A DNA stretch of 64,000 nucleotides, from the IMG/VR virus record IMGVR_UViG_3300031987_000007, positions 1,704 to 65,703 of that record; one strand, written 5' to 3'. Positions 2,968 to 58,152 of the stretch are shown here, piece after piece. The stretch comes from a virus. Both the position numbers and the translations under genes were made by a program. Numbering within the stretch: the stretch's first letter is position 1; every line of letters starts with the position of its first letter. The notes beneath the pieces were generated by a model. That model worked only from the letters and a program-made list of their open reading frames with translations. It was not told the DNA's origin and made no database searches.

Positions 2968-3717
2968 TTACTGAATACCGAGTCGTTCGTTCAGACGTGA
3001 ACGGGTGAGCGCCGGCAGTTGGATGACCTTGGCCGGGTCGGCAATGTGAGCGGGTAGGTAATCCGTCATCTCAGGCCAGCCATCACGGATCTGGCCGGTG
3101 GTATTGAACTGGTTCAAGTAGTCTTCAATTTCACCACGTACCTGATCACGGTCATTTAACCACTGTTTGTATGCGCGTTGACTATCCTTGTAAGTCTTGT
3201 ACGGTTTGAAGTCCCGGGGAATAGTGAGCGTGTTCCAGCCCCCATCATTTAGCATAAGTGCAAACCGGACTCTGTTGTTTTCATCCTGATACTCCGGAAA
3301 CGCAGAAGCGCCAGAGTGTGTAGTAACCGCCCCTATGTAGGGGATTTTCAGCTCATCGGCCATGGCCGTAGGTAAACAGAAGGTCATAACTGCCCCTTTG
3401 TCCCCATTCTCCAGTAAAACCTGTAGCCGGAAATCAGGCTCAGTGTTGAACGTAACGTGGTTTTTCAGATTCTCAGGAAGATCAGATCTGACTTTAATAG
3501 CGTCCTGGGTCCGTTTGGCCAGTTGTTTCATGGCTCTCTGTTCAGCGGGGGCTTTGGCAGACACTGCCATCAAGGTACGTAAAGTCTCTTTCACAAAGGA
3601 TGAGAACGTAGCACCTGCCGGAGACGGGTTAGCTTTTTCCCATTGCTTCATGACAGCACTGAGCATATCGAAGCGGTGTGTCTTGTTCAGGCGAATAGAA
3701 CGAGGTTCATCGGACAT
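2968..3717 (-). CDS. Nmad5-like protein (nucleotide modification associated domain 5)
   Basis: N-terminal RLNKTHR; C-terminal WPEMTDYLP...LPAL...LNERLGI, recalled as typical of Nmad5. Confidence 0.6.
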   Translation of the reverse strand: MSDEPRSIRLNKTHRFDMLSAVMKQWEKANPSPAGATFSSFVKETLRTLMAVSAKAPAEQRAMKQLAKRTQDAIKVRSDLPENLKNHVTFNTEPDFRLQVLLENGDKGAVMTFCLPTAMADELKIPYIGAVTTHSGASAFPEYQDENNRVRFALMLNDGGWNTLTIPRDFKPYKTYKDSQRAYKQWLNDRDQVRGEIEDYLNQFNTTGQIRDGWPEMTDYLPAHIADPAKVIQLPALTRSRLNERLGIQ

Positions 3718-3753: not shown

Positions 3754-3782
3754 GATTCACAGAAAAGCCCGGAGGGTTTCTG
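3754..3782 (-). promoter_or_regulatory. GGA-triloop hairpin element (vRNAP promoter-like)
   Basis: + strand GATTCAC-AGAAAAG-CCC-GGA-GGG; intergenic; could alternatively be a weak terminator. Confidence 0.4.
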
Positions 3783-3783
3783 T

Positions 3784-9602: not shown

Positions 9603-9625
9603 TGTCCAAACACCCGGAGGGTGTC
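9603..9625 (-). promoter_or_regulatory. GGA-triloop hairpin element upstream of helicase
   Basis: TGTCCAA-ACACCC-GGA-GGGTGT, 6-bp stem, no strong U-tract in transcript orientation. Confidence 0.45.
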
Positions 9626-9649
9626 TGCGTTGTGTTGTTGGTTCATGGG

Positions 9650-10762: not shown

Positions 10763-11827
10763 TTAGAAGAGTGTGTGTCCGTTCAGGGCCACCCAGCGGT
10801 CCACAGACGTTGACTGCAGCAACTTGGGGGTCCGTTTGATGATTTCTCGCATAGCGATGATCTGGAACTCCCGGGGAATACGCTCCACGTACTGCATGAT
10901 CGGGTCGATGTTCTTGCCGTTGGCGTGGTGTCCCAGGGCGCCGGTTAGCATCCAGGAAATGGAAGGCTCATCGGGAACCGGGACTGTGGCTGGGCTTTTG
11001 CAGATTTGCTCAATGCTGGGCAGACGATCCGCGACCTGACAGTACCCGTAGAACTCCCTGGCTACGCCTTCGGAGACGGTGCCGGACAGCAGGATCTTAT
11101 CCAGTGGCTCAAGCATGGCCTTGGGTTTGATCAGGTGACTGGCAAACTCCCAGGTGCGTGGGCACGCAAAGGTCTTGTCGTCATGGTCCGGGTTGAACTT
11201 GAACAGCAGATCCGGTTTCCAGTTGATGTAACTGGTGATCCGGTGATCAATGCCTTCCTCTCGGGCCCATTCCAGCCAGGCCTTTACGTCCACCAACATT
11301 TCCATGTGAATCAGTCGTGATTGGATGGCGGTGGTGAGTTCCTCAACCATGGCGTTGTCAGACACCAGGTTGCCGGCAGCAACTTTGGCCACATTGGGGT
11401 GGAGCTTGAACTGGCCCACTTTGTGATCCAGCAGGATCTTGTAGCAGGCTTTTAGCACAGACTCCGGTGCCAGTGGCAGTTCATCGAAGAACAGGAGCCA
11501 TCCCGCAAATTTGTGCGTGTAGGGTTTACCGTCACCGTCATAGCGGGTTTCTGTTGGAAGTGGGTCACCTTCCGTTGGGTAGGTATCCATCGGCACGTAT
11601 CCGGCTTTTTTCCGGACACTGTCTATGTCGGGATACCCTTTGAGATCGGTGGGGTCACAATCGGCCAGACGCTCATCAATCAGTTTGAGGTTGTAGGCCT
11701 TAGCTATTTGATGGACGACAGCGGATTTACCGCAGCCTGGGCTACCTTCCAGGTACGGAACTAGCTTGGCTTTGAGGCACTGCTCAATCATCTCCCGGGC
11801 GTCTGGGAGCTTCACTTGGATGCCCAT
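10763..11827 (-). CDS. MoxR-like AAA ATPase (N4 gp24-like)
   Basis: GSPGCGKS, LFFDE, AAGN, SRLIH, CPRTWE; paired with vWA gene. Confidence 0.9.
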   Translation of the reverse strand: MGIQVKLPDAREMIEQCLKAKLVPYLEGSPGCGKSAVVHQIAKAYNLKLIDERLADCDPTDLKGYPDIDSVRKKAGYVPMDTYPTEGDPLPTETRYDGDGKPYTHKFAGWLLFFDELPLAPESVLKACYKILLDHKVGQFKLHPNVAKVAAGNLVSDNAMVEELTTAIQSRLIHMEMLVDVKAWLEWAREEGIDHRITSYINWKPDLLFKFNPDHDDKTFACPRTWEFASHLIKPKAMLEPLDKILLSGTVSEGVAREFYGYCQVADRLPSIEQICKSPATVPVPDEPSISWMLTGALGHHANGKNIDPIMQYVERIPREFQIIAMREIIKRTPKLLQSTSVDRWVALNGHTLF

Positions 11828-11849: not shown

Positions 11850-11879
11850 GATTCACAGAGTGCCCGGAGGGCACCTGTG
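11850..11879 (-). promoter_or_regulatory. GGA-triloop hairpin element upstream of AAA/vWA pair
   Basis: GATTCAC-AGA-GTGCCC-GGA-GGGCAC; intergenic; no U-tract. Confidence 0.5.
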
Positions 11880-11893
11880 TCCGGTAAGGCAGG

Positions 11894-12394
11894 TTATTCG
11901 CTGAGGCGGTCGATCTGCTTCTGAATATCCTCGGGAGACATATTCATCATCTCCTGATCCTTTTTATGGTGCAGGATCTCAGTCAGACGCTGACGCTCGG
12001 CGGCATTAGCAGCACGCTTCTGTGCGGCATTGGTTTGTTCAATGCGGGCATTGATGATGTGCTTCACAACGTCCAGTTTCAGCTCCAGGGCAGACTTAGC
12101 CGGGTTGGTGGTGGGTGCCTCGGCTTCCTTCAAGGTCCGGACGTAGCCCTTGTCGACCTTCAGCCGGGTCTTGCTGTCCAGCTCAGAGACACCCTGATCA
12201 AACGGTGTGGTGGCGTTAGCCCGGCCTTCGTTTTTGGCATAGGCCTGGTACTGTTTGCGCACTGGCTTACCGTCCAGCTTCTTGGCGTACTGGATTACAA
12301 CCAGTCCGTTGCCTTCAACCCACCCTTCCCAATAACCAATGGCATTGCCATGGTTTTGGTACAGGATGCGGTAACATTGTTTGGCTTCGCTCAT
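11894..12394 (-). CDS. Chimeric protein: ligase N-terminal domain copy plus coiled-coil tail
   Basis: 71/90 aa identical to N-terminus of 13434-14552 ligase; unrelated C-terminus ELKLDVVKHII... Confidence 0.85.
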   Translation of the reverse strand: MSEAKQCYRILYQNHGNAIGYWEGWVEGNGLVVIQYAKKLDGKPVRKQYQAYAKNEGRANATTPFDQGVSELDSKTRLKVDKGYVRTLKEAEAPTTNPAKSALELKLDVVKHIINARIEQTNAAQKRAANAAERQRLTEILHHKKDQEMMNMSPEDIQKQIDRLSE

Positions 12395-12609
12395 TGTTGC
12401 TCCTGTTCGTATTCTTGTTCTGACATCACATCGCTACAGCTGACACCAGTTACCCGGTAACCCGGTAGTGCAGAGCAGTCCGCGCCTGTAGCCAGTGAGT
12501 CAATAAAGGGATCTGTACCGTCATCGCTGACAGGGTTTCCTGTCCGCTCAAAAACAACGGTTAGATAGTCTGTGTTTGGGCGGCCGGTGTACGGATGGGT
12601 TTTACTCAT
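12391..12609 (-). CDS. Hypothetical protein
   Basis: ATGA overlaps on both sides. Confidence 0.6.
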   Translation of the reverse strand: MSKTHPYTGRPNTDYLTVVFERTGNPVSDDGTDPFIDSLATGADCSALPGYRVTGVSCSDVMSEQEYEQEQQ

Positions 12610-13424
12610 GCAACGTCCTTATTCAGTGAAAGGGTTTTCTGGAAGGTGGTTTTCTTGACTTGGGGCTTGGGCAACCCACCGTGGATGAAATACTGGTGGA
12701 GCAGTGTGTTGAGTAGCCGAACACCAATGGTGTTTTTCTCGAAGTTGTCTTCAACCACGGCCATGATTTCCAGCTCGGCCTGGTCTCGGTCTACTTCGGG
12801 GAACAGGGCTGCATAGAGATTGAGGAGTTTGGACTTGGTGAGAATGTCCCACATTTGATCCAGGGTGATCTTCTCCAGGCCATACGTGAGACCAACTCGG
12901 CCCAGGAACTCGGTTTTAATACCGAACTCCCGGAGGCGATCAATGTCCAGATCCTCTTCACCATTGAAGGCGCCAGCAAAGATGAACAGGACATTCTCAC
13001 ACTCAACGTCCAGGTACTTGCCGAAGTCGCCATAGACACTGGCAGTCCGGCTTTCGAGTACCTTGAGGAACTCATTCTGAACACCATTGGTGGTCTCATG
13101 AGCCAGATCAGAATTGGTGTTGCCGCTGATGAACAGTTTGTCGAACTCATCCACAAAGCAGATGCAGGGTTGTCCGGCTTTGCGAGTGAGCGGTACCAGG
13201 GCCTTGGAGAGACTGTTGCCGGCTGTGCCTTCTTTGGTCAGGGCAGCCGCGTTGATCTCGAACATATCAATGTCGAGTTCGTCGGCCAGGTGTTCAATGG
13301 TGTGGGTTTTACCGGAGCCAGATGGGCCGGTCAGAATAAAGTGCGGACGGATCTCTGCTTCACTGGTTCGGAAGATTTCGAAGATCCGCCGGATATGATC
13401 CATGGATTCTTTGTTCTGGTTCAT
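12606..13424 (-). CDS. ClpX/HslU-like AAA+ ATPase
   Basis: GPSGSGKT, FVDEFDKL, GVQNEFLKVLE, FIFAGAF, EFLGR. Confidence 0.88.
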   Translation of the reverse strand: MNQNKESMDHIRRIFEIFRTSEAEIRPHFILTGPSGSGKTHTIEHLADELDIDMFEINAAALTKEGTAGNSLSKALVPLTRKAGQPCICFVDEFDKLFISGNTNSDLAHETTNGVQNEFLKVLESRTASVYGDFGKYLDVECENVLFIFAGAFNGEEDLDIDRLREFGIKTEFLGRVGLTYGLEKITLDQMWDILTKSKLLNLYAALFPEVDRDQAELEIMAVVEDNFEKNTIGVRLLNTLLHQYFIHGGLPKPQVKKTTFQKTLSLNKDVA

Positions 13425-13433
13425 GAGAAGGCC

Positions 13434-14935: not shown

Positions 14936-15175
14936 TTAATCTCCGAGGTCATCCCAGTAAAGGATGCTGACGTTGCCATCGGCAATGCCCAGTAAATGGA
15001 TGGTTTCAATGTCGTCCCGGCCCCAGTCAGCCGCACATTGTTCTTTGGCAGCTTCTTCGATAACTCCGGTAAGACAGTTACCGTTTTTATCGGTAGTGAC
15101 CTCAACGGTGCTGATCCAGATGGTTCCGGTACCACACTCGTCCTGACAAAAGACGGTGCATGTTTTCTTAGGCAT
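14936..15175 (-). CDS. Acidic hypothetical protein
   Basis: Tightly packed ORF with RBS (GGAAG). Confidence 0.6.
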   Translation of the reverse strand: MPKKTCTVFCQDECGTGTIWISTVEVTTDKNGNCLTGVIEEAAKEQCAADWGRDDIETIHLLGIADGNVSILYWDDLGD

Positions 15176-15861: not shown

Positions 15862-16500
15862 TTATAGTGAAATGGATAACAAACCTTGTTGTACTCTGGG
15901 GTCTGTTTCCATTCTTGCTAATTCTTTGATGTGACTTAATTTAGCGTTATTGTATGCAGTAGCCGCTTCATGCGGTGTTTTGAAGTAACCTATTAAGACT
16001 TTCTTACCAAACATCCTGCATTTTGCGACGTAATAGATGTTCTCTTTTATAACGACCCTAGATACCCCTACCGGGTAGTCACCTCTTTTATTATTTCGAG
16101 AGGTTAGTAAGTTATTAAGCTCTTTGGAAATGAATAGACACGTATTAGGGCCGTAGTGTTTTTGTCCTTTCCCAAGTATGTCTTTATCCAGAGCTTTACC
16201 TTCCCAATTTTGTTTGATCATCCACTCCCTAAAGTTGCTAAAAAGTAGCCATGAACTTTCTACAGTAGATCCCAAATAGGTAGGTCTATGAGTCAATGAT
16301 TGCTCACTAAAACAACGTGTTAGAAGAGCAACCCAGGTTCTGTAATACGGGCATTGGTACCGCTTACCGTCCTGGGATACATAATAAACATTGTATGGAG
16401 CATCATTTACTCCTACACCGTGGATTAATTTCCTACGGTTGACTGAAAAACTGGTTACAGGTGTCTCTATAAACATGGCGAACATACCTCTGGTTATCAT
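15862..16500 (-). CDS. Free-standing HNH-type homing endonuclease with AP2-like C-terminus
   Basis: GVGVND, YRTW..LL.RC, W..FSNF..W, LDKDIL, Y.P.TC.FI...LN, YP.GV; visibly AT-rich. Confidence 0.8.
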   Translation of the reverse strand: MITRGMFAMFIETPVTSFSVNRRKLIHGVGVNDAPYNVYYVSQDGKRYQCPYYRTWVALLTRCFSEQSLTHRPTYLGSTVESSWLLFSNFREWMIKQNWEGKALDKDILGKGQKHYGPNTCLFISKELNNLLTSRNNKRGDYPVGVSRVVIKENIYYVAKCRMFGKKVLIGYFKTPHEAATAYNNAKLSHIKELARMETDPRVQQGLLSISL

Positions 16501-16625: not shown

Positions 16626-16657
16626 AAAAAATAAGACCAACCCCAAAGGGCTGGTCT
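16626..16657 (-). terminator. Rho-independent terminator
   Basis: Minus strand AGACCAGCCC-TTTG-GGGTTGGTCT followed by T-tract. Confidence 0.7.
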
Positions 16658-16698
16658 CTGTTTCAAACTCGCAAGAGTGGCCGGAGGCCACCTGTTAT

Positions 16699-16887
16699 TT
16701 ACTGTTCTGTAGGTCGATACTCCCACAGGGTTATTGCCATACTGTAGCTGTATCCGGTAGGCCCCATTGCACCGCAATGCTGACACACTACAGAGAACTC
16801 TCCGTTCTCTGCATCTTGTTCCATGGTTACGAAATCATGCTTACAGAATGGGCAGATTGCGTTTGTAAACCGTATAGGTTCCATCAT
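16699..16887 (-). CDS. Lar-like (restriction alleviation) zinc ribbon protein
   Basis: CPFC...VVCQHCGAMGP...AI.LW. Confidence 0.65.
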   Translation of the reverse strand: MMEPIRFTNAICPFCKHDFVTMEQDAENGEFSVVCQHCGAMGPTGYSYSMAITLWEYRPTEQ

Positions 16888-16893
16888 TAATCC

Positions 16894-18159
16894 TTATGAG
16901 AGGAAGTAGTTCGATTGTCTGATCTTGGCTGAGAGGTTGGGTGACTTCTTCGGGAAGGTTCCCTGTACGCCGTAGAGCTGGCTCAGAATGTCATTCAGCA
17001 GGGTGCTATCGGCCATCTCTGCGAAGATGTCCCGGTAGTGCATCCGTAGGAAGTTCATGTTGTTGGCATGGCACTTGAACTCGTCGTGTACCGAAATCAT
17101 GTGGAACGGTTTGTGAGTGAGCATCTGGTTCAAGATTGCTGCCAGTTGCTTCAGGTGAGTGGTAGATAAAGCTCCCAACGCCGATTCATCAGCGTAATCA
17201 AGAATACGAATATCCGGCATTACTGTGGCTGTGTACCGGTCCTGTAATCGTAAGAAGTCTGGATGACACTCATCTTCATAAGCTATGTGGTTGATACCCA
17301 TGGAACGTTCCAGAAGAACAGCTTCAATGGCTTGAGAAGCCCATGCCACTTGTTCTGCATCGTAGCTACAGCGCCGTATCAGGCATCTGAGTACATAGGC
17401 GTCAATGCTATGGATCACATTGGCGACGTTGCTCAGGCCTTTCTCAGTGCCTTCGTTGACGTAGTATTCGTACTCGAACGTGGCGTGATCCAGCTCATCC
17501 ACTTCGATGCGGGTTTCCACCTTCTCCATGACCTTAACGCGAGCGTGGCCACCGTCAGGCAGATCCCATGAGTGAACCAAGGCGTAAGGCGTCCATGAGT
17601 TCAAGAGGTCTTCCAACAGCTCACAGGCGCCCGGAGCAAGCTCGTACATGGCCTTGTAGAACGCCTGTAACTCAGGTGTATCTTTGCCGAACAGGTTCTT
17701 GGGCTCTTTCTTGGAGCCGTACAGCGAGGTCATAACCGCCTGCTTTACGTCGGACCTATCGGCCTCTCGGCCGGCAGCATCTTTGTTCAGGTAGTTACCG
17801 ATTCGCTTTTTCATCAGTGTCATGCAGTCAGTGTACGCATCAGCACGCCGGTTGGGATCGACCAAGCCAGTGGCATTGGCACCAGATTCACAGCCGGTGA
17901 TAGCCGACATGATCTGCATCCCAGAACACACCGCATCGAAGCCGACTTGGTGACCGGTAGGCAGGCCTTGCTGGGCTTTGCGAATGGCCTGAACAGCTTT
18001 CATGTACAGCGCAGGTTCATCGGCCTGTTCCGCCAAACTCTCGAGAGATTTGAGGTTGTCCGTGGCCCACTGGATACGGTCACCGAACAGGTCTTTATCA
18101 TTGCCGAACTGATTCGCGGCATCAATCAATAGGTACTCATAACCTGTAAAGGTTTGCAT
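16894..18159 (-). CDS. RNA polymerase II large subunit (N4 gp16-like, RNAP2)
   Basis: Motif A FDAVCSGMQ, motif B RSDVKQAVMTSLYG, motif C SVHDEF. Confidence 0.95.
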   Translation of the reverse strand: MQTFTGYEYLLIDAANQFGNDKDLFGDRIQWATDNLKSLESLAEQADEPALYMKAVQAIRKAQQGLPTGHQVGFDAVCSGMQIMSAITGCESGANATGLVDPNRRADAYTDCMTLMKKRIGNYLNKDAAGREADRSDVKQAVMTSLYGSKKEPKNLFGKDTPELQAFYKAMYELAPGACELLEDLLNSWTPYALVHSWDLPDGGHARVKVMEKVETRIEVDELDHATFEYEYYVNEGTEKGLSNVANVIHSIDAYVLRCLIRRCSYDAEQVAWASQAIEAVLLERSMGINHIAYEDECHPDFLRLQDRYTATVMPDIRILDYADESALGALSTTHLKQLAAILNQMLTHKPFHMISVHDEFKCHANNMNFLRMHYRDIFAEMADSTLLNDILSQLYGVQGTFPKKSPNLSAKIRQSNYFLS

Positions 18160-18224
18160 GGTCTGTTCTCCGTATGAGGTATGGGCACCACGGAACCGCC
18201 TGTAAGGCGGCTGTGGTCATGGGA

Positions 18225-18496: not shown

Positions 18497-19141
18497 TCAG
18501 TCAGATCCGCGGATCAGGACGACATCGGTGGAAACGATGGTGGGTTCTTTATCGAGGTCTTCACGCAAGACGTTGAGCTTCTCAGTGTATTCGTACTGAA
18601 GATCCTCATCGTCGTTCAGCTTCAGCATCTGAAGGTAGTGATCCTCGAAAGGGTTTCCGTCAGCGAGTGGGTTGAATTGGGCGTACACCTTGTCGCGGGC
18701 CTGTTCCACAGTTTCAGCCATCACGATAATGTCGCCTTCGCTGTAGGCCTTGAGGCTTTCGGAACTCCAGTGGTAGAGGCTTTTCATACCGTAATTCCTT
18801 AAATCTTTGCGGCGTTCACCCATGGTGAGGGCGTTGTAGAACTTGGTCTCATCTTCTGGACCAGGTTCTTCATCCAGAAAGGTCATTCCCGGTTCAGGGA
18901 TGACATCGTCCACAACCACGCAGTCAGGCCGAAACCCTGACTTACCACGGATACCCGGTTCCTGAAATGGAAAACCTTTTAGATCCTCAGCTTTGATGCT
19001 GTTGGACGGTGTGCTGAAATCGACAACTGTCCGGCCATTACCAACAGGGAAGCTGTGTGGCTCAGGATTGGGTTTGGTGAGCCGACCGGTGGAGGTACCT
19101 TTCACCGTCATGCCTGTGGTCATTTTGTGGTCTTTACTCAT
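18497..19141 (-). CDS. Hypothetical mosaic protein between RNAP subunits
   Basis: 214 aa ORF with ATGA overlap to RNAP1. Confidence 0.65.
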   Translation of the reverse strand: MSKDHKMTTGMTVKGTSTGRLTKPNPEPHSFPVGNGRTVVDFSTPSNSIKAEDLKGFPFQEPGIRGKSGFRPDCVVVDDVIPEPGMTFLDEEPGPEDETKFYNALTMGERRKDLRNYGMKSLYHWSSESLKAYSEGDIIVMAETVEQARDKVYAQFNPLADGNPFEDHYLQMLKLNDDEDLQYEYTEKLNVLREDLDKEPTIVSTDVVLIRGSD

Positions 19142-20055
19142 AGTCCGGGTACTCCAGTGACCACCTCTTCATCGGCAAATTCTATTGATGCCTTTTTGAA
19201 GCCGGTGGCTTGCGTGTTGATGTGATACCCCTGTGAATACAGGCGTAGGCGTTTGTCGGCTTTGTTGGTAAGCCAGAAGCGATTGCCCTGGCCCGCGATC
19301 AACCGGTACCGCTGATAGGACTCCCGCTTGAACTGGCCCCATTGTTGGATCTTCTCCGGTGTGTCCAGATCGAAGGTAGGCTCCTCCTCTACGGTGCAGA
19401 GGAAGTCCAGATCGAGCTTGAGAGGCACTGCATTCTGTTTGTTGATGACATCCAGACAGATGTCTTCGCTGTGTCCGTTGGCTTTGCCAAGGATCAGACA
19501 GTCGTTGTGGGTGAGGTAGCCGGAGTCGTAGTTGGTACGGGCTTCTCGCGGCTCACACACCATCGGTGGCAGGTAACCGGACTGCACAACATAGCCAATG
19601 AGGTCTTGGCTCAGAGGTATCCGAGACTGGATCACCAGAGACGCAGAGCGGTCTGTCTTCACAATGTCAAAGGCATCGGTCAGGCAAAGTACCGCCATCA
19701 TCTCGGCAACGGTCGTGATTGAGTCGGCTTTGTCGTCGAACTTCAGTCTACCGGCCAGTTGTGCGGTAATGCTGGTGAACAGCTCAGGGGTCTGGCAGTA
19801 GGCCACACCAACAAACAGGGCCCGTACCAGCTCCTCCAGATCAATGTCTTGGATCTGGGCCAGACGGTTGTTCTTCTGAGGGTAGCCATGGTCCTTGGCC
19901 AGCCAGTCTTCCAGCAAGGTAATGCCTTCGGCCACCTTGGCTTCCATGCTTGGGTTGGCACGGATTTCCATATCAATGTAACGGTCGATGAATTTACGTG
20001 AGTACGTGTACTCGTTGGCGAACTGGATATCCCGCGGTGGCAGGCGCTTGGTCAT
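19138..20055 (-). CDS. RNA polymerase II small subunit (N4 gp15-like, RNAP1)
   Basis: LPPMVCEP, SGYLT, CLDVIN, F.L..KADKRLRLYSQGYHINTQ; synteny with RNAP2. Confidence 0.93.
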   Translation of the reverse strand: MTKRLPPRDIQFANEYTYSRKFIDRYIDMEIRANPSMEAKVAEGITLLEDWLAKDHGYPQKNNRLAQIQDIDLEELVRALFVGVAYCQTPELFTSITAQLAGRLKFDDKADSITTVAEMMAVLCLTDAFDIVKTDRSASLVIQSRIPLSQDLIGYVVQSGYLPPMVCEPREARTNYDSGYLTHNDCLILGKANGHSEDICLDVINKQNAVPLKLDLDFLCTVEEEPTFDLDTPEKIQQWGQFKRESYQRYRLIAGQGNRFWLTNKADKRLRLYSQGYHINTQATGFKKASIEFADEEVVTGVPGL

Positions 20056-20971: not shown

Positions 20972-21268
20972 TTACAGGTCGAGTTCAGAGCCGTTGTTGC
21001 CGTCAGCACGCTGGAAGTCCAGCACGATACGGTCTTTGATCTGGTCCAAGACAGTGTCCAGATCGTCAGCATCTGCGATGTGATCGAGCAACTGCTTATC
21101 CAGAGGCTTGTTCGTCTTCAGAGGGATGTAGCCCAGCTTGCGACGGCCCCCATCACGAGTGGGTAGATAGATGTTCACGAAGGCGTCAGCCTTCCACTGG
21201 TCATTACGACCGGTGATTGGTGCGACGTTACCCATTTGTTGTGCAGTATTTTCAGTTTGAAAAGCCAT
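20972..21268 (-). CDS. Drc-like ssDNA-binding RNAP II cofactor (N4-like gp14 family)
   Basis: AFVNIYLPTRDG...C-terminal ELDL resembles (from memory) LUZ7 Drc; upstream of RNAP1. Confidence 0.6.
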   Translation of the reverse strand: MAFQTENTAQQMGNVAPITGRNDQWKADAFVNIYLPTRDGGRRKLGYIPLKTNKPLDKQLLDHIADADDLDTVLDQIKDRIVLDFQRADGNNGSELDL

Positions 21269-21335
21269 GGTAATTCTCCAAGATTCAAAGGGATGACCCA
21301 CCCAAATGGCAGGTCAAAAGGTTGTTAGGTATTTC

Positions 21336-21358
21336 GTTCACTACTCAAGCGGAGCTTC
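21336..21358 (-). promoter_or_regulatory. vRNAP early promoter
   Basis: + (template) strand AAGC-GGA-GCTT, same as the N4 promoter hairpin core; C at predicted +1 (21341). Confidence 0.8.
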
Positions 21359-22019: not shown

Positions 22020-22039
22020 TCCATTACTCAAGCGGAGCT
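22020..22039 (-). promoter_or_regulatory. vRNAP early promoter
   Basis: Shares 15-mer TACTCAAGCGGAGCT with the 21342-21356 site. Confidence 0.7.
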
Positions 22040-38769: not shown

Positions 38770-41700
38770 TGTCCGAGTTTAACGCAAGCCGGTACTTTGA
38801 CAACTTGGCGGCTAAAGAGGCCGATACCACTCTGAGTCCGAACGCCTGGCAGGGTGTCCAGAACCGCCTGACCAAAAAGCAACAAGATGTGGCTGAAACC
38901 AGCCGGCGTAAGGTCGAAGCCATGCGTGAAAACGAACGGACCGTGAACCAACAAGACCAGTGGGACAGTGTCGCCGGTGATCTGGGTACTGGTTCGGACA
39001 TTGTCAGGGAAACCGTTGAAGGTGGTGTCAAGGGTGTTGGCGCTGTCTTTGGGGGTATTGGTGATGGTATTGAAGCGGCGGGTAAGGGTATCGAGGATGT
39101 CCTCGGCGCCGTAGGTCTGGGCGATGAAGTCCAGGCTGCTAATGAGTTTCTGGGTGGATTGGGTGTTAATGCCCCAAGCGAGGGCTTTCAGGGTGTTGAA
39201 AACTGGATGAACCAAGGTGCTGAGAACATAGACCAGTCTCAGGACATGGATTATCGACAGTCCCTGATCGACAGCACGCCAGGTGGTGATGTAACCGATC
39301 CAAGCACATGGACCCTGGGCGAGAACCCGAGTGCCGAGGGGTATGCGGGTCACATTGCCGGCATTATCGGTGGGTTCGCACCACAGGCCGCTACCTTACT
39401 GGCGGGTTCTCCTACACGGGTGGCCACAGCCATGGCGACAGTGGGCGGAGCCCAGGTAGGTGGCAGCCAAGCCAACGAAGCAGAAACCCGGATCAAAGCA
39501 GCGTCTCAGGAAGAGCTTTCTCAGATCGGTATGTATCAGGATCTTATTAAAGAAGGCGTCAGTCACGAAGACGCAGTTGAGCAGACCTCCAAAGCGGCAG
39601 GAGCGGCTGCGTTCATGGCGGCAGCACCTGTTGGTGCTGTTGGCGGTGCTGCCACCAGTTACATTCTGGGTCCACTACAGAAGCAGTTGGCCGGTAACAT
39701 CGCAGGCCGTACTGCCGGGTCGGTCGCATTGAGTGGTACCGAAGAAGCCACACAGGAAGTCAGTGAAACAGTCGCCGCCAGGGCCGGTGTGAATGCAGCC
39801 ATTGGTGATGACCAGGATCTGACCGCGGATACCTTTGCCGATGCCTTATTGGGCGGTGGCTTTGGTGCGGGACTGGGTGTTGCTGGTACCACAGCGTCCG
39901 AGTTGCAGCGTGCCGGACAAAAGAGAGCCGATAAGGAAGACAAGAAAGCCGCGGAGCGTCGGGCGACCAATGGCACCATTTCCGAGCTGATGGCGGCCGG
40001 GGATGTGGATACCTTGGTTGATCCGGAAGCAGGTAAACGCTTCAAGGCAGAAGATGTGGCCCAGGCTGCGGTAGTTGCAAGCACCACTGCGGAACTGGAT
40101 CAGGAAGTACAGAACAATGGTAAGAAAATTCTGCCGAAGATCGGTGAACGTCTGGAGACAGAGCTGGAAAACCTGAAAGCTGATGAAGCTTTACGGTCTC
40201 CGGAGGCGGAAACCAAGAACAAAGGGTTGCTGAAAAAAGCCCAGCAGCTCAAGGCCAGGGAAACAAAAGCGGGCAACAGCGTCGGGGTAGAGCAGGCCAA
40301 CGAGATGATTGGTCAGTTGACTGAAGAACTGAAAGCCACCCGGGACGAAGACAAGGCCGTAAAGAAAGAACGGACAGACCGGATCGAGGCGATGGAGTCG
40401 GCGATTGCCCGGGTCAACGTGGCCCAACGCAACCTGTCAGCCAATGCCTCCAAGTCGGTGGATGTGGATTCACTGATTTCTATAGTGGAAACGCCAGAGA
40501 CGGATGCTGTTGAGAAATCCTCGGCTGCACAGGAAATCATTACCCAGGCCATGGCCAATCCTGATGTGCTGACAGAAGACACAGCACTACGTCTGGCAGA
40601 TGACTCGGCCAACGGATTGACTGAGAAGCAACGTGGTTATCTGCGGTCCTTGTCCCAGAGCAAGGTGGCCGCCAATGAGTTGAAGGACTACACCGATGTG
40701 GTCAAAGACATCTTCTCGGCCAACCCTTCAACCGGTTTTAAAAGCCTTCCTCAATACCGTTCATCTGTTCAACGTGGTCTGACCAATGGCAGCACCGACC
40801 GGGTAGCTGCAGAGCTGGCTCAGCTCGGTCGCTTCTCTGAGTCACACCAGGCCAAGGCCGCACTGGCACGCCAGGCCTTTGACGGTATGGAACCAGGACA
40901 GAAGCAAGCCCAGATCGTCCACAGGGACGGTGGCTGGGAGATGAATACCGGTAAACCCATGAGTGACAAACAGCTCCGTGAGAACGGTGGCCTGTCTATC
41001 TCTACTGGTTCGCAACGTCTTGTCGAGGGGATCGAGCGTGAAGCTCAGGTGATTGAAGCCGCTCGCCAGGAACTGGAAGCGGCTACGGCCGTGACTACAC
41101 CTACAGAACAGCCGGAGGCTGTCTCAGATAATGAGACCGCTGATGTTGATGCTCAAGCCGATCAGAACGCTGACCAGGAGACTGAGAATGAAACAGACCA
41201 GACGCAAAGCGACCAACCTGCAGAAGAAGCTACAGCGCCAGAAACTTCAACGGAAGCGGAACCAGAGACGGGAACAGTCACTTCAGCAGAGCCTGAACGA
41301 GCCAGTGAAGATACTGAAGTTCGGGACAGAGCTGACGACGGTACACGGGATTTCGGAACAACTGTGGAAGGACGCGGTGGAGACACTGGGCGTGAGGAAT
41401 CTGTAGAGCCGGAAGCTCCGGCCAAGTCTGTCCTGTTTGTTGATCAGGGCACCTTCGAGCCGTATATCGGACAAACCACAGTGACTGAGTTCACCAGTAT
41501 GAATCTGGTTCAGGCTTACTTCACCACGAAGAAAGGTCTACCACTGACCGCGAACAAGGACTTCCTGAGTGAAACCTTGGCTACGAACCTGGATAACCCC
41601 GAAGCGTTGCCGGTTGAGTTCAGTGATAGGAATGACACCCGGGACAAGCAACAAGGTCTGGTGCGGTACTTTGCTGAAACCGCGACCAAGTGGAACCAGA

Positions 41701-44700
41701 CCGTTGATGCGTTGTTCCAGGACAAGAAGCGTAAGGACTTCCGCCATGAAAATCTGGTGACCTTCTTTGCTGAAAATGGTCAGTTGGATGAAAACACTAA
41801 GACTGCGATCAGTACCGCTGCGTTCACCTGGGCCGTCGAGAATGGTAATGACCTCTGGTACAACGATGAGGACGCTATCCGTAAGATCCTGGGTCTGGGT
41901 CCGCAGGATGTAGTAACGGACAACGACCGGTTACTGGTGGGTGATGTGGGTACCCGAGATAAGCTGGTGATTCAGGATCTGGGTCAACGAGTAACACAGG
42001 CCTTGGGCCAGCGGATCAGTAAAGACGCGCCGATCAATCACCAGGCCCAGTTGGAAGGGGCCTTTGGTGCCATAGCTTTGGCGGTGTTACAGGAGCAAGG
42101 GTATGTCCAGCGGATAGCCCGTCAAAATGCGGCATTTGGTACCGACCAGGTAAATGAAGAGGGGAAACTCCCCCTTAATTGGTTTGTACGTAGCAACCGG
42201 ATCACAGACAGCGAGGGGAATACCCAGTTCAACCCGATGATTACCGGACTGACCGACCGTGCCAAAGGTACTCAACAGATCGTTCATGACCTGTTCCGGG
42301 TGGAATCCCAGAAGACCGGGCCGGTGGACACAGCCCCGAAAAAAGTACAGGACACCACACGCCGGACGGACCAGAAAGTACCGAAAGAGCAGCGGAAGAT
42401 CCTTGAAGCGGCCATGGCCCAGGAACACTGGCTCAGGGCGGATATGCTCGATGCAGAGACCGGTATTCTGAATAAGCTACCAAGGGCCTTGGTCGATGCG
42501 ATCAGTGGTGTAGAGGCCACTGAGGACCGTCTGATCCATAAAGCAAACCGGTCCAGCCTGGATGCCAAGAATGAGTCGATTGTCCGCGGTAATGATTATA
42601 TGTATGAACTGGCCAACGACCGGTCTGATCGAATGGATCAGCCGTTCTTCTTTGATCGCTCGGTGTGGCGCCAGCAGCGTGTGGGTATCAAATCCAACAC
42701 GTTCAACCCCCAGGCCAGCAAGGTCCATCGTTTTGTAATCAAGATGGTTGGATGGGATTACGATGTGCCAGTAGCCCTGACAGGTGAATCTGGACAACGA
42801 TTCAAACTGGCTGTACTGGAATCCCTGGGTGTGAAGACAGACAAGCAGGGCAACGCCAAGTCACTAGGTCAGTGGGATACCACCGTCAACGATCCGGAAG
42901 TCCGGGCAGCGGTCGAGGCGTTGAAGAAGTTCAGCACCGGGCAGACCACCACACAGGCAGATCAGGATGCAATCCTGGCCGGCGTACAACGTGGCGGGGA
43001 AGACTTCCACAGCTTTGATGGCCTGTGGCACTTGGCTCAGGTAGAACTGGCTGAGACCACCGGCGAAACCAACTTCACAGCCACACTGGTTCGGGAAGGT
43101 GACGGTGTCACCAACGGACCAATGTTTGCACAGCTCCAGACCGGTGCTCTGTTTGGTCGTGACGGTATGGGCGCCAAGGGCGGGTTCTTCACCAAGGCAG
43201 ACGCGGTGCAGGATTATGGGGTATGGGCCCAGGAAGGCAGCAACCACGATTTGTACGAAACCCTGGCCAACGCTGTGGCTGAAAAGATGGAAGGTCAGAG
43301 AAGTGTGGATAGTGGTAGTGAGCCTTTCTACAACTTCCTGGATAAGATCCTTGGTCAGTTCCGGGATGTGGACACAGACGCGGTGACCGGTAAAGGCCGC
43401 AAGCGTGTGAAGACACCCCTGACGGCCATGGTATTTGGTGCCGGCAAAGAGAAGTCGATTGCCAACATGGGGCATGAGTTCGTAGACCTGATCTATGACA
43501 ACATCCAGGACATTCTGGACACCCATGACAATGACCGGGATGCCCGGGCTTCAATTGAAACTTTGTTCAGTGAGCTGAATGGATTTCTCCCGAAGAGCCA
43601 GCAAATCGGTATCCGGCCTACCCGTAAAAACGCAGCGGACCTGGAGTTCTCTGCGGGTCAGCGTGAAACCTTGGTTGGGTTGTTTGAAGGCACGATTGGT
43701 CAGCACATTGATAATGCTCTGGAAGATCAATATGGCGAGTTCTTGTCTCGGCGTAAGCGGTTGAACGATGCCGCTGGCCTGTCTTTCAAACTGTACAAGC
43801 TGGTGTATGACGCGGAGCGTCGAGCCATGATGCAGGAACTGGAAGGCGCCGGGACTATGCCGGTAAATAAAAAAGGCGAACCGCTTCAGGATCTGACCAA
43901 GGCTCAGGAACAGGAGCTGAACAAACGGGTTGAGGCCTTATCGCCACTGGTCCACACCGCCTTGTCAAAAGGTGGTAGCCGGGATGCGGGCCTGAAGATG
44001 GCCAAGATCCAGCGGTCCATGGCACCGGCCGACCAGCCACGTTGGAACGGTAAGGTCACGTTCAAGAAGCATGTACCGCTAAATGCCGATGCCAACGTGG
44101 ACACGTTGCATAAGAGTGTGCGTAAGGATTCTCGTAAGGAGATGGACTTCCGGGCAGTGGTTCAGGAAGAGACCGATCCGGGTGTGGCGCCATTGATCAT
44201 GCTGATTCACTCCATGGACAGTGCCATCATCTCCCGGGTGTACAAGAACGCCAACATCCTCAACGTTCACGATGCGGCCATTGGCTCGCCGGAACAGCTT
44301 GAGACAGTGATGAGGTCGATGAACCAGGAAACCCTGAACGCCCTGATTGAGTATTCGGTACCAGAAGAAGTTATGCAGGCGCTCTATCACACCTTGTTGA
44401 GCTTCAACGAACGGGCCGGTGATTTTGAACAGGATGCCCAGTTCCAGGCCGATTACAAAGCCCTCAAGAAAGAACTGAAGGCTGAGCCCGGTGAAAAAGC
44501 TGGGGAGTTGTTGAAAGCTGCTACGGATATGGACCAGGAAGCCATGCAGTGGGCCCAGGATCTGGAGTATGTGAACCAGTATGGATATGAAGGCAGTGCC
44601 TATCATGTTCAGGATTCCGATAGGCAACGCATTAAAGATCGTCTGAAAACCCCGATGAAAGACCGGATCATTGCCCGGTTGGGTAAGGCCAAGTTGGCCA

Positions 44701-50088: not shown

Positions 50089-50475
50089 TTAGCCAAACAG
50101 GCTCTTGCTGTCCGTGGCTGGCTTTTCTGCTTCTTGCTCATCATCGTCGTTGGCCGATGCTTTGTCTGCGTCCGGAGTGAACGGAGGGGTGTCTTCTTCC
50201 TCTTCTTTTTCTACCGCAGGCTCCGGCTTGGGATCTGGTTTTGCCTTAGCTTTGGCCTTTGGCTTTTCGGCCGGCTGTTCCGTAGTTTCCGGTACCTGGG
50301 CCACGGACTCAATCGGTGCCTCGGACACTTCGACTTCAGCCGACAGGTTGAAACCGCCTTTACGGGCGACGGCAAAGTTAATTTCACGCACCGGGGTGGT
50401 GATGCCTTTGGAGGCCACGTAGTCTTTGATGGCCTGTTCGATATCGTCTTGTTTAATGCTGAGCTTAATTTCCAT
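50089..50475 (-). CDS. Conserved N4-like protein with acidic/Pro linker and KSLFG tail
   Basis: MEIKLSIKQDDIEQAIKDYV N-terminus. Confidence 0.75.
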   Translation of the reverse strand: MEIKLSIKQDDIEQAIKDYVASKGITTPVREINFAVARKGGFNLSAEVEVSEAPIESVAQVPETTEQPAEKPKAKAKAKPDPKPEPAVEKEEEEDTPPFTPDADKASANDDDEQEAEKPATDSKSLFG

Positions 50476-50504
50476 TGGTTTTTCCTATTGGTTCGGTGGT
50501 GGCA

Positions 50505-50999
50505 TTACGCCGCTTTGGGAATGGATTGGTGATACTTGTGAATGCCATAGAGACCGATGAACAAGGCATCGGCAATGGCCTGACCCTTGGCCTTGGTATC
50601 GAGGATACGCAAGCCAGGGAAGAGCTGAGTGGCTCTGGATCGGGCTATGTCTTTATCCGTCCCGATCAGGTTGGTGTGTTTCTTCCAGGCTTGGGGCGTG
50701 ACCATCGTGAGGGGAATCCCCATACCGGCAATGATGCCGTGGACAACGCCGGCAGAGTGACCAAAGGAGAAGGCCCGTGCGGCCCCGTCTTTGGGCATAC
50801 TGTGGACGTTCTCGACATAGGCATGGGAGAGCCCGGGCCACTTCTCAAGCCAGGCCACAATAGCCGCACCGTTGACGCGGTTCTTGGAGCCTATCTTGAT
50901 GCCTGGCATGAACAGGTGATCGACGTATTTGCCATGCTCATTGAGGATGACCAGGGCCCCAGTGAGGCCCGGATCAACGGCGAGGAACCCTCGACTCAT
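50505..50999 (-). CDS. RuvC-like Holliday junction resolvase
   Basis: AVDPGLTGA, AYVENVH, AFSFG, VTPQAWKK, ADALFI. Confidence 0.88.
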   Translation of the reverse strand: MSRGFLAVDPGLTGALVILNEHGKYVDHLFMPGIKIGSKNRVNGAAIVAWLEKWPGLSHAYVENVHSMPKDGAARAFSFGHSAGVVHGIIAGMGIPLTMVTPQAWKKHTNLIGTDKDIARSRATQLFPGLRILDTKAKGQAIADALFIGLYGIHKYHQSIPKAA

Positions 51000-51262
51000 G
51001 ACAGCTTTGCCTTTGCCGTAGAGCTTGGCTTGGCGGTCCCAGGTGGGATCTCCAGGTAACCCTCTTCAAAGGCTGCTTTGGGTGACCATGAGTGGTATTC
51101 CTCGGCAGTGCCTTTGGCGTAGACCACATGATAGCCAGGCGCCATCGGATCCATGTTGCCAAGATCCCGGAAGTTACGGACGCTGAGTTTAAACTCACCG
51201 TAAGGCATGGGTTCGGCATGGACCTGCTTGATGCACTGGTAGAATTTGAGGCGATCAGCCAT
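50996..51262 (-). CDS. Conserved phage hypothetical protein (DUF2829 N-terminus-like)
   Basis: V.AEPM...GY.V.Y...Y.SWSPK.AFEEGY. Confidence 0.7.
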   Translation of the reverse strand: MADRLKFYQCIKQVHAEPMPYGEFKLSVRNFRDLGNMDPMAPGYHVVYAKGTAEEYHSWSPKAAFEEGYLEIPPGTAKPSSTAKAKLS

Positions 51263-51329
51263 TCAATATTCCTTGGTTCAGTTAATGGCCGGAGCCGCCG
51301 TAGCAGCCCCGGATGTTATCGAGCCAGGA

Positions 51330-52073
51330 TTAACCGAACAGGGACTTGGTCGGCTTGGCGGTAGAACCACCACCTGTGGCTGCCGGGGCACCTGCAGAAC
51401 CACCGTTGCTGTCATTGGCAGCGGAGGCTTTGTTACGGGTCTGGCCGGTCCACTTCTTGTCCCAGGTGTGGTAGAACGCCGGCTCTTCGGCCTGGGCACG
51501 GATCTCGGCCGTGGTCATCTGATCCTTCTCACGGAAGAACTTGTCGATCTCGTTGGTTTCACGAGTCTCGCCGGTCGGACGGTAAACACCGTCATCACCT
51601 TTCTGGTTCTTATCCACGATCTGCTTTTGCAAACCAACAATGACACGCTGACCCAGCAGCTCAGTGACCACCTCGGCCTTGGTCATGACATCCTTGCCCT
51701 GGTCGAAGTTGTAGATGGCAATGGTCTTCTCTTCGGTATCGACTTCAGAGAGTTCTTTACCAACGGTCAGCAGCGCCAGTGAGTTGGCGTGGTTGAAACC
51801 AGGCAGGTACTTACGATCACCATTGGCGGTTTCGTAGTAGTTCTTGTTGCCTTTGGCATCGCCGGATGCCAGGCACAGGCCTTCCTTGTACTCACGACCT
51901 TCGTCGCTCTTGAGGGTCAGATTCAGGAACAAGGCACCGGACTGTTTCTTTTCCAGGTACGCCATGGAGACTTCCATCGGGTACAGCGCGGAGTCAAACG
52001 GACCACCACCGCCTGCAAAGTCCTTTTCGTTTTCAATGGATTCGTCGGTTTTTACTGTATTGAGAAGTGACAT
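51330..52073 (-). CDS. ssb: Single-stranded DNA-binding protein (N4 gp45-like)
   Basis: YLPGF..ANSLALL, ETNEIDKFF, TAEIRA; C-terminal KSLFG. Confidence 0.9.
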   Translation of the reverse strand: MSLLNTVKTDESIENEKDFAGGGGPFDSALYPMEVSMAYLEKKQSGALFLNLTLKSDEGREYKEGLCLASGDAKGNKNYYETANGDRKYLPGFNHANSLALLTVGKELSEVDTEEKTIAIYNFDQGKDVMTKAEVVTELLGQRVIVGLQKQIVDKNQKGDDGVYRPTGETRETNEIDKFFREKDQMTTAEIRAQAEEPAFYHTWDKKWTGQTRNKASAANDSNGGSAGAPAATGGGSTAKPTKSLFG

Positions 52074-52134
52074 AAGGTATTTCCTTTTTCGTTTCGATTG
52101 GGGTTAGGTAATCAGAGCTACAGGGACTGGGGAT

Positions 52135-52869
52135 TCAGTCCGCGTAGTATTCGTGAAGTCGGTCGAAGACCAACTGGATGTTGTTGTCGATGAAGGTTTC
52201 TTCGGTTTCAAACAGGCCCATGGGACCACGCAGCCGTTCGTTGACGGTCTCTTTGGTCAGGTCTGTCTGGAACACGTACTTGAAGCCCAGGGCCTCTTCT
52301 TTCGGGGTAACGGTCAGAAGGTCTGAACCATAGTCCTTGAGATCCTTCAGCTTCACTTTCTTGGCGGCAATGATGCATGAGAAGTAGCTCTCAATGCCGT
52401 TGTTCTTCAGGGCACCTTTGACCGGTACCTTGGTGTCCATGACCATCTCGGCTTCGTTGTAACTATCCAGGGTGTGGGCAATGAACACGACGTTCTTGGT
52501 GGAGTTGGCCACGTTCTGTGACATCAGGGTTTTGAAGAACTGTGCGAAATCGCCCCAGGCTTTCATGGTGTTTGCGGAGTTCAGTACAAACAGGGATTCG
52601 TACATATCCATCATGTAGGTGAGGGAGTCCACCACGATGGTATGAACGTCTGGCATGTTCTCGGCTTCATCAAAAGCCTGGAACACTTGATGAGGGTCGG
52701 TGATAGTGAACTGCTTGAACTTACTTTTGAACGGTAGTTTCTTACCGGACTCGGTGTTCAGGTAGATCACGCCTTCCGGGTTCTTGATCTCCCGAAGGGA
52801 TGCCGATTTGCCGGCTGAAGATTTACCACACAGTAGAACGAGATTGTCGTTCACATGATCCTGTGACAT
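52135..52869 (-). CDS. AAA/Sak4-like ATPase (N4 gp44-like)
   Basis: CGKSSAGKS, IVVDSLT, FIAH, GIESYFS. Confidence 0.88.
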   Translation of the reverse strand: MSQDHVNDNLVLLCGKSSAGKSASLREIKNPEGVIYLNTESGKKLPFKSKFKQFTITDPHQVFQAFDEAENMPDVHTIVVDSLTYMMDMYESLFVLNSANTMKAWGDFAQFFKTLMSQNVANSTKNVVFIAHTLDSYNEAEMVMDTKVPVKGALKNNGIESYFSCIIAAKKVKLKDLKDYGSDLLTVTPKEEALGFKYVFQTDLTKETVNERLRGPMGLFETEETFIDNNIQLVFDRLHEYYAD

Positions 52870-52892
52870 AGAGGGTTCCTATTTTTCTGGTT

Positions 52893-52918
52893 GGTTCGCA
52901 GAAGGGCCCGGAGGGCCC
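52893..52918 (-). promoter_or_regulatory. GGA-triloop hairpin element upstream of gp44/SSB
   Basis: GGTTCGC-AGAA-GGGCCC-GGA-GGGCCC. Confidence 0.45.
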
Positions 52919-52931
52919 CTATACACTGAGG

Positions 52932-55118: not shown

Positions 55119-55132
55119 CGTGTTCTCCTGGT

Positions 55133-56104: not shown

Positions 56105-56155
56105 AACAGGTTCCTGATGTGTTGTGGGTAAATAAATAACGGGGTTGGGTACCCG

Positions 56156-56377
56156 TTACTTTTTACGGAAAGTGAATGTGATCGTAGGGAAGAGAATGAA
56201 ACCAAACAGGTTTAGGTATTCCACTTCAGCGAGGAAGTTCCCGGGTGCTGTGGGGTAGGTTACTTTGCCCGTTAATAAACGGTAGGAATACACACCCGGC
56301 TTACAACCTGGTTTGGATTTAACCAGAAATAACCCTGTCGAGAATCGGGGCAGGTATTTATAAATTATTGTTGGCAT
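56156..56377 (-). CDS. Hypothetical protein
   Basis: Fills the gap between neighbours; AT-rich. Confidence 0.35.
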   Translation of the reverse strand: MPTIIYKYLPRFSTGLFLVKSKPGCKPGVYSYRLLTGKVTYPTAPGNFLAEVEYLNLFGFILFPTITFTFRKK

Positions 56378-56772
56378 TCCAATGCTCGTAGTTCCATGAC
56401 TTCCATGCGACCACCAAAGTGTCCGACTTTCTCTGCATTACGCAGATGACTGTCGCCAGGTTTACCATTTCCAATCCGCATCTGGCCTTTACGCCATAAT
56501 GCTTTGAAGGCTTCCCCTTCTTGGAAAGTCATCTGGAAGTGTTCAATCAGGTCTTCACACTCGGCGCTGTACGGCTTGAGCCGTTTGGGCTGAGTGATCT
56601 CGGCAACCCAGTAGTCATTGTCTTTACCGGAAGATGTCTGCAAAACAGTCCCTGTTTTTTGTTCAAAGCCCATCTCATTGTCATTGCTTGCTTGTTTACT
56701 TAAACAAGAAGGGCAGTAATCAGTTACTCCACTTACAGCATGAGAACAGGAAATCGTTTTACATTGGGTCAT
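56365..56772 (-). CDS. DUF3310-like protein
   Basis: ECEDLIE...MTFQEGEAFKALWR...AEK. Confidence 0.7.
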   Translation of the reverse strand: MTQCKTISCSHAVSGVTDYCPSCLSKQASNDNEMGFEQKTGTVLQTSSGKDNDYWVAEITQPKRLKPYSAECEDLIEHFQMTFQEGEAFKALWRKGQMRIGNGKPGDSHLRNAEKVGHFGGRMEVMELRALECQQ

Positions 56773-57906: not shown

Positions 57907-57932
57907 GATTCACAAGAGGGTTCGGAGAACCC
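57907..57932 (-). promoter_or_regulatory. GGA-triloop hairpin element upstream of HNH-AP2 operon
   Basis: GATTCAC-AAGA-GGGTTC-GGA-GAACCC. Confidence 0.5.
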
Positions 57933-58100
57933 CTGTTATTTTCTGTTGTGGTAGGGGAGGGATTGGAATTACCTGAGTCCGCGTGGGCGCAGCCCAAAGC
58001 GGCGAAGGGTAAACCAGAGAGATAAAGGTGTGTTGGTTTTGTTTGGTACGTTAAGTCAGCAAGCTGGCGTGGTTGATTGGTTTTCTCCTCTTGAATATGC

Positions 58101-58131: not shown

Positions 58132-58152
58132 ACGATTCCCTGGGTTAGTGGG

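Follow-up and report, generated by a model that had tools for sequence, protein, structure and literature searches.

The DNA hairpins with a C-GGA-G triloop that lie scattered between the replication genes of this N4-like phage raise the question of whether they are promoters and, if so, which of the phage RNA polymerases reads them. An earlier note on the same DNA had proposed that the virion RNA polymerase (vRNAP), or RNAPII through a hairpin mode, drives the middle operons from these hairpins, in a transcription programme different from that of N4. We analysed a stretch of 64 kb (the window) out of the 73.6-kb genome of this uncultured N4-like (Schitoviridae) phage from IMG/VR. The replication genes are located on the minus strand (1-21300 and 50089-61777), and since the early and middle genes run leftward, the plus strand is their template. 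The closest cultured relative of the RNAPII large subunit is that of LUZ7 (49% identity; 35% to N4), while a megablast search with the vRNAP gene against cultured phages gave no match. Details of the features are presented in Table 1.

Table 1. Hairpins, terminator and relevant genes in the window, with the hairpin stems at the same gene junctions of the relative G001 (positions are those of the window; hairpins are named by position).
Feature	Position	Strand	Stem or core	Predicted +1	Stem in G001	Remarks
Dispersed-class hairpin 3771	3756..3783	+	CCC/GGG core, bulged outer pairs	3758	GAGGCC/GGCCTC	dCMP deaminase/next gene junction, after dCMP deaminase gene
Atypical member 9616	9606..9628	+	ACACCC/GGGTGT			between vWA and helicase genes; 22 bits
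Dispersed-class hairpin 11866	11852..11879	+	GTGCCC/GGGCAC	11854	same stem, 4-nt loop	ligase/ATPase junction; loop GGA 11866-11868
Intrinsic terminator	16633..16658	-	11-bp stem + T-run			about 12-40 nt past predicted 16683 start
Dispersed-class hairpin 16683	16668..16695	+	GTGGCC/GGCCAC	16670	CGGGCC/GGCCCG, two compensatory changes	RNAPII large subunit/next gene junction; loop 16683-16685
RNAPII large subunit, N4 gp16-like	16894..18159	-
Variant member 18203	18187..18217	+	CCGCCT/AGGCGG	18189		GTA loop, T-A closing pair
RNAPII small subunit, N4 gp15-like	19138..20055	-
Drc-like small early protein	20972..21301	-				likely start ATG 21268
Early-class promoter 21351	21337..21357	+	GC-GGA-GC, 4-bp stem	21339		-8 G
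Early-class promoter 22034	22020..22039	+	GC-GGA-GC, 3-bp stem	22022
vRNAP, 3580 aa	38769..49511	+
Hairpin 39447 inside vRNAP ORF	39442..39454	+	GC-GGA-GC, 5-bp stem			no start box; significance uncertain
Hairpin 41114 inside vRNAP ORF	41099..41126	+	ACAGCC/GGCTGT			TCTGT spacer, template C at 14
Hairpin 43814 inside vRNAP ORF	43809..43821	+	GC-GGA-GC, 5-bp stem			no start box; significance uncertain
Dispersed-class hairpin 52910	52895..52922	+	GGGCCC/GGGCCC	52897	GGGGCC	primase/Sak4 junction
Dispersed-class hairpin 57924	57909..57936	+	GGGTTC/GAACCC	57911	GGGTTC, identical	RNR/next gene junction, after ribonucleotide reductase (RNR) gene

All seven sites named in the earlier note are present, with the stems and loops given there. 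Perfect-stem C-GGA-G triloop hairpins are found exclusively on the plus strand of the window, with 15 versus 0 for stems of at least 3 bp, 9 versus 0 for at least 4, 8 versus 0 for at least 5 and 6 versus 0 for at least 6. A motif scan against shuffled sequence, as had been proposed, gave means of 4.5, 1.3, 0.30 and 0.06 at the same four thresholds (300 dinucleotide shuffles), and the family is thus strand-specific and far above chance. C-GGA-G is the commonest type among the window hairpins whose stem has 6 bp or more, and over the whole genome C-GNA-G hairpins are distributed 11 versus 0 by strand. The sites added by this census are 16683, 18203 and three on the same strand within the vRNAP ORF (39447, 41114 and 43814). 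The heptamer GCGGAGC occurs 7 times against an expectation of 6.2 and shows no enrichment, which leaves the meaning of the GC-GGA-GC hairpins 39447 and 43814 doubtful. A covariance model (R1) built from the hairpin family revealed no further strong member in a scan of the window, 18203 being the next best match (13.2 bits, E 0.16); 11866 scores 32.4 bits and 41114, which is itself a member of the training set, 26.4 bits. Single-strand DNA folding with an energy model that gives no bonus for GNA triloops returned the expected hairpins, the short stems with only modest z-scores.

On the sense strand of the leftward genes, the consensus of the dispersed hairpins is ACAG, 6-bp GC stem, TCC, stem and TCTKYG-AAYC, where the TCC loop is GGA on the template. 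Six sites combine a perfect 6-bp stem with the GGA loop, and the exceptions are 3771, with its bulged stem, and 18203, with its GTA loop. The sites are scattered along the early/middle strand over a distance exceeding 40 kb and are not confined to the first-injected end. As the earlier note had it, all dispersed sites are intergenic and on the template strand of leftward genes; they are located 12-33 nt past a stop codon (228 nt for 57924) and 40-184 nt ahead of the next start. It had also described most of them as lacking U-tracts, and in the sense RNA a U-tract follows none of the dispersed hairpins, the strand after the stem reading TCTGTGAATC or similar; the terminators with a UUCG loop and a T-run are separate elements.

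The individual sites vary around this theme. The 11866 hairpin carries an outer CACAG/CTGTG extension with one bulge, folds as DNA at -10.8 kcal/mol (z -4.1) and precedes the AAA ATPase gene (10763-11827, minus strand) by 40 nt. The variant 18203, with an ACAG box and a TTCCGTG spacer, folds at -10.7 kcal/mol (z -4.25) and has the RNAPII large-subunit start (18159) 44 nt downstream. At the early/middle boundary, the 16683 hairpin is the first of its kind to follow the RNAPII large-subunit gene, and the 52910 hairpin lies between the primase and Sak4/gp44-like genes, 42 nt ahead of the Sak4 start. The 41114 hairpin shares the strand of all other hairpins, which makes it antisense to the late vRNAP gene, and is not conserved in G001, a collinear relative of 73.1 kb. 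The atypical 9616 hairpin sits in a segment of ~110 nt that is missing from G001 and some other relatives. The gene after the 3771 hairpin (2968-3717, minus strand) encodes an Nmad5 (nucleotide modification associated) domain (1.5e-10) and has no counterpart in G001.

The earlier note had placed a TTC(A/G)C motif 9-10 nt 5' of the loop at five sites and had derived from it an N4-like start with transcripts beginning G(U/C)GAA. The motif is indeed present at this distance in 3771, 11866, 52910, 57924 and 21351, with 9616 outside the spacing, but the N4-like start had to be given up: in four of five sites the template has an A at the N4 position (11 nt away from the centre of the loop), and a C is found there only in 11866, 9616, 21351 and 41114. 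The consistent C is instead located at 14 nt (3771, 16683, 18203, 52910, 57924 and 41114) or 13 nt (11866); only 9616, with its C at 11, has none at 13-14. This is a test on sequence, for which the LUZ7 spacing was recomputed from the LUZ7 genome and the published Table S2 of mapped starts. The likely +1 is therefore the C in TTC, at a LUZ7-like distance of 13-14 nt from the centre of the loop, and the transcripts would begin GAAUC or GAACC. The base at -8 is C or T in the dispersed sites, and a G is found only in the two early promoters and in 39447 and 43814.

Evidence for promoter function comes from LUZ7, an N4-like Pseudomonas phage whose primary 5' ends were mapped by ONT-cappable-seq, a method that enriches 5'-triphosphate ends (Putzeys et al. 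2022, PMC9163698). Besides early hairpin promoters, that study described four 'middle' promoters which, unlike the N4 RNAPII promoters, are GC-rich hairpins with a stem of at least 6, a loop of 3-4 nt and a G start about 15 nt downstream (PMC9163698). Our scan of the LUZ7 genome for C-GGA-G hairpins on the template strand with stems of 6 bp or more returned four and no others, and 14-15 nt after each of them lies a mapped transcription start site (TSS), a G (Table S2, preprint 10.1101/2022.03.18.484859). These starts are PE7 (8259), PE8 (9543), PM2 (35273, confirmed by primer extension) and PM4 (66600, antisense, in the late gene orf85). In the window sites the equivalent template C lies at 13-14 nt, with the exception of 9616. 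Positions agree as well: PE7 follows the RNAPII large-subunit gene, as does window 16683, and PM3, the strongest middle TSS of LUZ7, lies in the primase/Sak4 gap, as does window 52910.

The likeness to the LUZ7 elements PE7, PE8 and PM1-PM4 thus extends from the template-strand GC-rich stem of at least 6 bp and the GGA loop, mostly C-G closed, to the early/middle-gene strand, the shared junctions and an antisense member in a late gene (PM4, comparable to window 41114). The phage of the window also possesses a LUZ7-like RNAPII and, judged by profile-level homology, a putative counterpart of Drc. Unlike LUZ7, it adds conserved boxes to the element (ACAG before the stem and TCTKYG-AAYC after it) and has more copies in its replication region.

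The hairpins are conserved at orthologous junctions. Shared proteins of G001 and the window are mostly about 40-85% identical, and those encoded by the genes flanking the hairpins 57-77%. The top hairpin type of G001 is also C-GGA-G (7 versus 0 by strand), and at five of the six dispersed junctions a hairpin is found in both genomes, with stems that mostly differ and are still complementary and with a GGA loop except for the 4-nt one at the ligase/ATPase junction. The hairpin at the RNR junction is kept in G001 although the HNH gene next to window 57924 is absent there, and at 14953-14990 of G001 the covariance model matches at the place equivalent to 18203.

A wider sample of uncultured phages gave a similar picture. 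Among 80 IMG/VR loci with the Sak4/gp44-like gene, 18 distinct perfect hairpins are located 21-95 nt upstream of it, with template loops GGA (13), GTA (2) and GAA (3) and mostly different stems; since perfect stems were selected, the paired fraction of this set is circular and only its stem diversity, with both sides changed in all six stem pairs, is evidence. Most of these hairpins have the pyrimidine spacer and G-A(A) next, at the same distance. After the RNAPII large-subunit gene a hairpin is found in 18 of 28 related loci, 15 of them within 15-44 nt, and these loci include genomes of the size of LUZ7 and LIT1. An RNA library (X6), in which a small share belongs to relatives and not to this phage, contains a contig that crosses the 16683 hairpin and is uninformative on starts. 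As a side observation on the distribution of the phage, a gas-well metagenome, from a study other than that of the freshwater source, contains a nearly identical phage over 9000-18900 (95% of sampled words, contigs without differences), and a lake-water metagenome contains many diverged relatives.

From the LUZ7 mapped starts, the counterparts at the same junctions and the covarying stems, we consider it likely that the dispersed hairpins are template-strand promoters of the LUZ7 kind, whichever phage polymerase reads them. That part of the earlier proposal stands, without its N4 spacing. The promoter kind itself has been known since 2022 from LUZ7, of which the window sites are a further case, ordinary for the window alone. 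The expectation of a programme different from N4 was correct too, and had already been published for LUZ7 (PMC9163698).

The comparison with N4 itself is instructive for the choice of polymerase. The N4 promoters read by vRNAP (gp50), P1-P3, consist of a hairpin with a stem of 5-7 bp and a C-G closed 3-nt loop with a central purine, and need a G at -8, the stem base beside the closing C, which is contacted by R904 (PMC4496689). The note's statement that such hairpins are confined to the early end of N4 agrees with our scan of NC_008720, which returned P1 at 97, P2 at 566 and P3 at 4555 only, plus one GTA hairpin at 40155. The latter, a 6-bp hairpin with a C-GTA-G loop, lies within the vRNAP gene on the strand of P1-P3 and resembles the window sites in the vRNAP ORF. 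The window hairpins share with P1-P3 the stem and loop, the template-strand location, the G-R-A loop of 3 nt, the C-G closing pair and, by prediction, a C at +1. However, the three N4 sites lie in the first 4.6 kb, with the -8 G and a +1 C 11 nt 5' of the loop centre (verified on P2), whereas in the dispersed class the -8 base is a pyrimidine, the predicted +1 is at 13-14 and the stems are of 6 bp and GC-rich, and the sites occur throughout the middle region.

The middle promoters of N4 RNAPII are of another kind, AT-rich from -7 to +2, dependent on gp1 and gp2, with a T start and no hairpin (PMC4496689). They serve the same set of replication genes, presumably through a homologous heterodimeric RNAPII on a single-stranded template, whereas the phage of the window would use GC-rich hairpins and G starts, and homologues of N4 gp1 and gp2 were sought in its genome and none was detectable. 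Salmonella phage FSL SP-058 resembles it in having strand-specific template GNA hairpins in the early and middle regions (15 versus 0 of the C-GNA-G type) and, after the stem of several of them, a conserved box. In contrast to the window, the loop there is mostly GAA, the box is CTTTGG, the genome is AT-richer and an N4 gp2 homologue is encoded. The dispersal of hairpins in a gp2-type phage implies that dispersal is not tied to Drc-type phages.

The early promoters of the phage itself provide a second standard. The early class (21351 and 22034) is distinct from the dispersed one, with a short stem, the spacer TGAGTARTG and a C at 13, and its GC-GGA-GC core is the heptamer of N4 P2/P3. The 21351 promoter, with the sense spacer TGAGTAGTG, is located upstream of the Drc-like gene, which it is predicted to drive, while 22034 lies directly after a UUCG terminator. 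The class varies by phage: its loop is GGA in the window and thus shared with the dispersed hairpins, unlike the GTA or GAA of the LUZ7 early promoters, and in G001 the core is GC-GAA-GC, in four copies. These G001 copies (52262, 52570, 53040 and 53220) read GCGC-TTC-GCGTGTGTYACGG, and each is located ahead of a gene, the Drc-like gene being among them; a T-run of ~29 bases precedes the copy at 52570.

The earlier note had left the choice between vRNAP and RNAPII open. Because the -8 G is missing and because the flanks and the spacing (14 versus 13 nt) differ from those of the phage's own early promoters, the dispersed class, with its longer GC stems, points to RNAPII rather than vRNAP, although not decisively. 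Protein identity between the window and G001 is 42% for vRNAP and 70-77% for RNAPII; the early class varies in step with the fast-evolving vRNAP and the dispersed class remains constant with RNAPII, which also counts for RNAPII. We therefore lean, by a modest degree, towards the heterodimeric RNAPII as the reader, with the Drc-like ssDNA-binding protein recruiting it.

This Drc-like protein is the product of the first early gene and matches PHROG 6271 (3e-12), a family annotated as 'toxin' like LUZ7 gp14/Drc. Its sole PDB match, a weak one (E 0.048), is 6QLC, the Drc structure, and pairwise blastp gives 1e-6. A tblastn search with it against cultured phages gave no match, and LUZ7 Drc searched by tblastn against this genome gave no match below E 1 and none that falls on the Drc-like gene, so that the homology is one at profile level only. 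The protein is a probable cofactor of RNAPII, and its gene, together with the lack of detectable gp1 and gp2 homologues, is a further point in favour of RNAPII.

The alternative that survives best is that the injected vRNAP reads the hairpins one by one during genome entry, their single orientation serving transcription-driven entry. The loop and the closing pair are those of N4 P2/P3 and of the phage's own early promoters, the hairpins all have one orientation regardless of how the genes run (41114, 39447 and 43814 included), and model R1, built from the dispersed class, picks N4 P3 with E 0.002. LUZ7 PE7 and PE8, of the same class, are active at 5 min and were classed as early, and therefore the class is not cleanly 'middle' and may be read by vRNAP. 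The numbering of the N4 mini-vRNAP contact residues was checked on N4, and the loop-stacking W129 alone gave a convincing alignment (its counterpart here is F or Y), the region of the specificity loop being too divergent for residue calls. On the other side, besides the differences from the early class given above, only about four copies of vRNAP enter per virion in N4, and hairpin extrusion has been argued to limit vRNAP promoters to the entering end. On balance we regard vRNAP as an unlikely reader. Still less likely, in our opinion, is the extended version in which all co-oriented hairpins, including the antisense ones in the vRNAP gene, form a chain of entry promoters read by vRNAP or by a vRNAP/RNAPII relay; if true, the left-end restriction of N4 would be the exception among schitoviruses and not the rule.

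A different possibility is that the hairpins act in the RNA, with a sense C-UCC-G loop, in processing, stabilisation or weak termination, and that the LUZ7 5' ends are cleavage products. Each hairpin lies close behind a stop codon, and at LUZ7 PM3 a mapped 3' end (TTS T41, 39374) and the TSS (39375) are one base apart on the same hairpin, a predicted intrinsic terminator, as RNA cleavage would give. One relative (L081) also has a sense G-T pair, compatible with G-U pairing in the RNA and equal to an A-C mismatch on the template strand. However, PM3 is the only one of five LUZ7 hairpins with a mapped 3' end, the LUZ7 starts come from a method that enriches 5'-triphosphates, and the sense RNA of the window sites has the GC hairpin everywhere without the direct U-tract of an intrinsic terminator. 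The template loops are GNA, the ultra-stable DNA triloop that N4 uses, whereas UNC is no notable RNA loop, the conserved G-A(A) at a fixed distance suits an initiation box, and an Rfam search of the whole window matched no family. An action in the RNA is therefore improbable. Least credible is the view that the cassettes are mainly recombination or insertion hot spots, comparable to the promoter-stem-loop cassettes of T4-type phages, or single-strand replication priming signals: gene-content differences do cluster beside the hairpins and the strict one-strand orientation would also suit a replication signal, but the fixed-distance start box and the mapped LUZ7 starts are left unexplained, insertions beside promoters occur often in phages and do not conflict with promoter function, and there is little homology to recombine on because the stems differ between copies.

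Returning to the reading of the hairpins as LUZ7-type promoters, a plausible mechanism can be outlined. The GNA triloop closed by C-G forms a very stable DNA mini-hairpin, capable of extruding from supercoiled or SSB-coated DNA. A T7-like phage RNA polymerase may bind this hairpin and start at the template C located 13-14 nt 5' of the loop centre, so that transcripts would begin with GAA. In this scheme 18203 would serve the unit of the RNAPII large subunit, 16683 the ligase block, 11866 the AAA ATPase/vWA unit, 9616 the helicase/DNA polymerase unit, 3771 the block after dCMP deaminase, 57924 exonuclease/primase and 52910 Sak4/SSB. Three points of this outline are inferences: the activity of the hairpins in the phage of the window, the exact start nucleotide and the polymerase that reads them.

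The order ACAG, GC stem, GGA loop on the template, pyrimidine spacer and G-A start would provide a sequence rule for predicting the middle units of uncultured N4-like phages. The LUZ7-type hairpin promoter appears to be kept at fixed gene junctions across many uncultured N4-like phages, and coliphage N4 would therefore be a poor model for middle transcription in the family. Recognition of a hairpin by a minimal T7-like RNAPII together with an ssDNA-binding cofactor becomes a testable question.

Two of the predicted starts, those of the 16683 and 57924 hairpins, are followed by an intrinsic terminator within about 12-110 nt, which is odd for an operon promoter. At 16683 the promoter/terminator pair is kept in G001 and parallels LUZ7 PE7/T12 and PM2/T37. 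The close terminators could mean short RNAs, or polymerase-specific termination that stops one polymerase only. After 57924 a minus-strand segment of ~120 nt (57790-57911) is conserved in G001 and ends in a GC hairpin and TAAGTCGTTTT, a box that with its hairpin occurs once in the window and twice in G001 (17142 and 52251); the segment is a candidate small RNA or sequence-specific terminator.

The promoter gaps of the window look like insertion hot spots. HNH endonuclease genes at 15862-16500 and 57260-57766 lie beside hairpins and are absent in G001. Two further stretches next to hairpins are absent in related metagenome contigs, where the joints fall at the edges of the hairpins: a 1.55-kb block (11880-13433), which contains a duplicate of the ligase N-terminal part and a phrog_5534 gene, and a small zinc-finger-like ORF (16705-16893).
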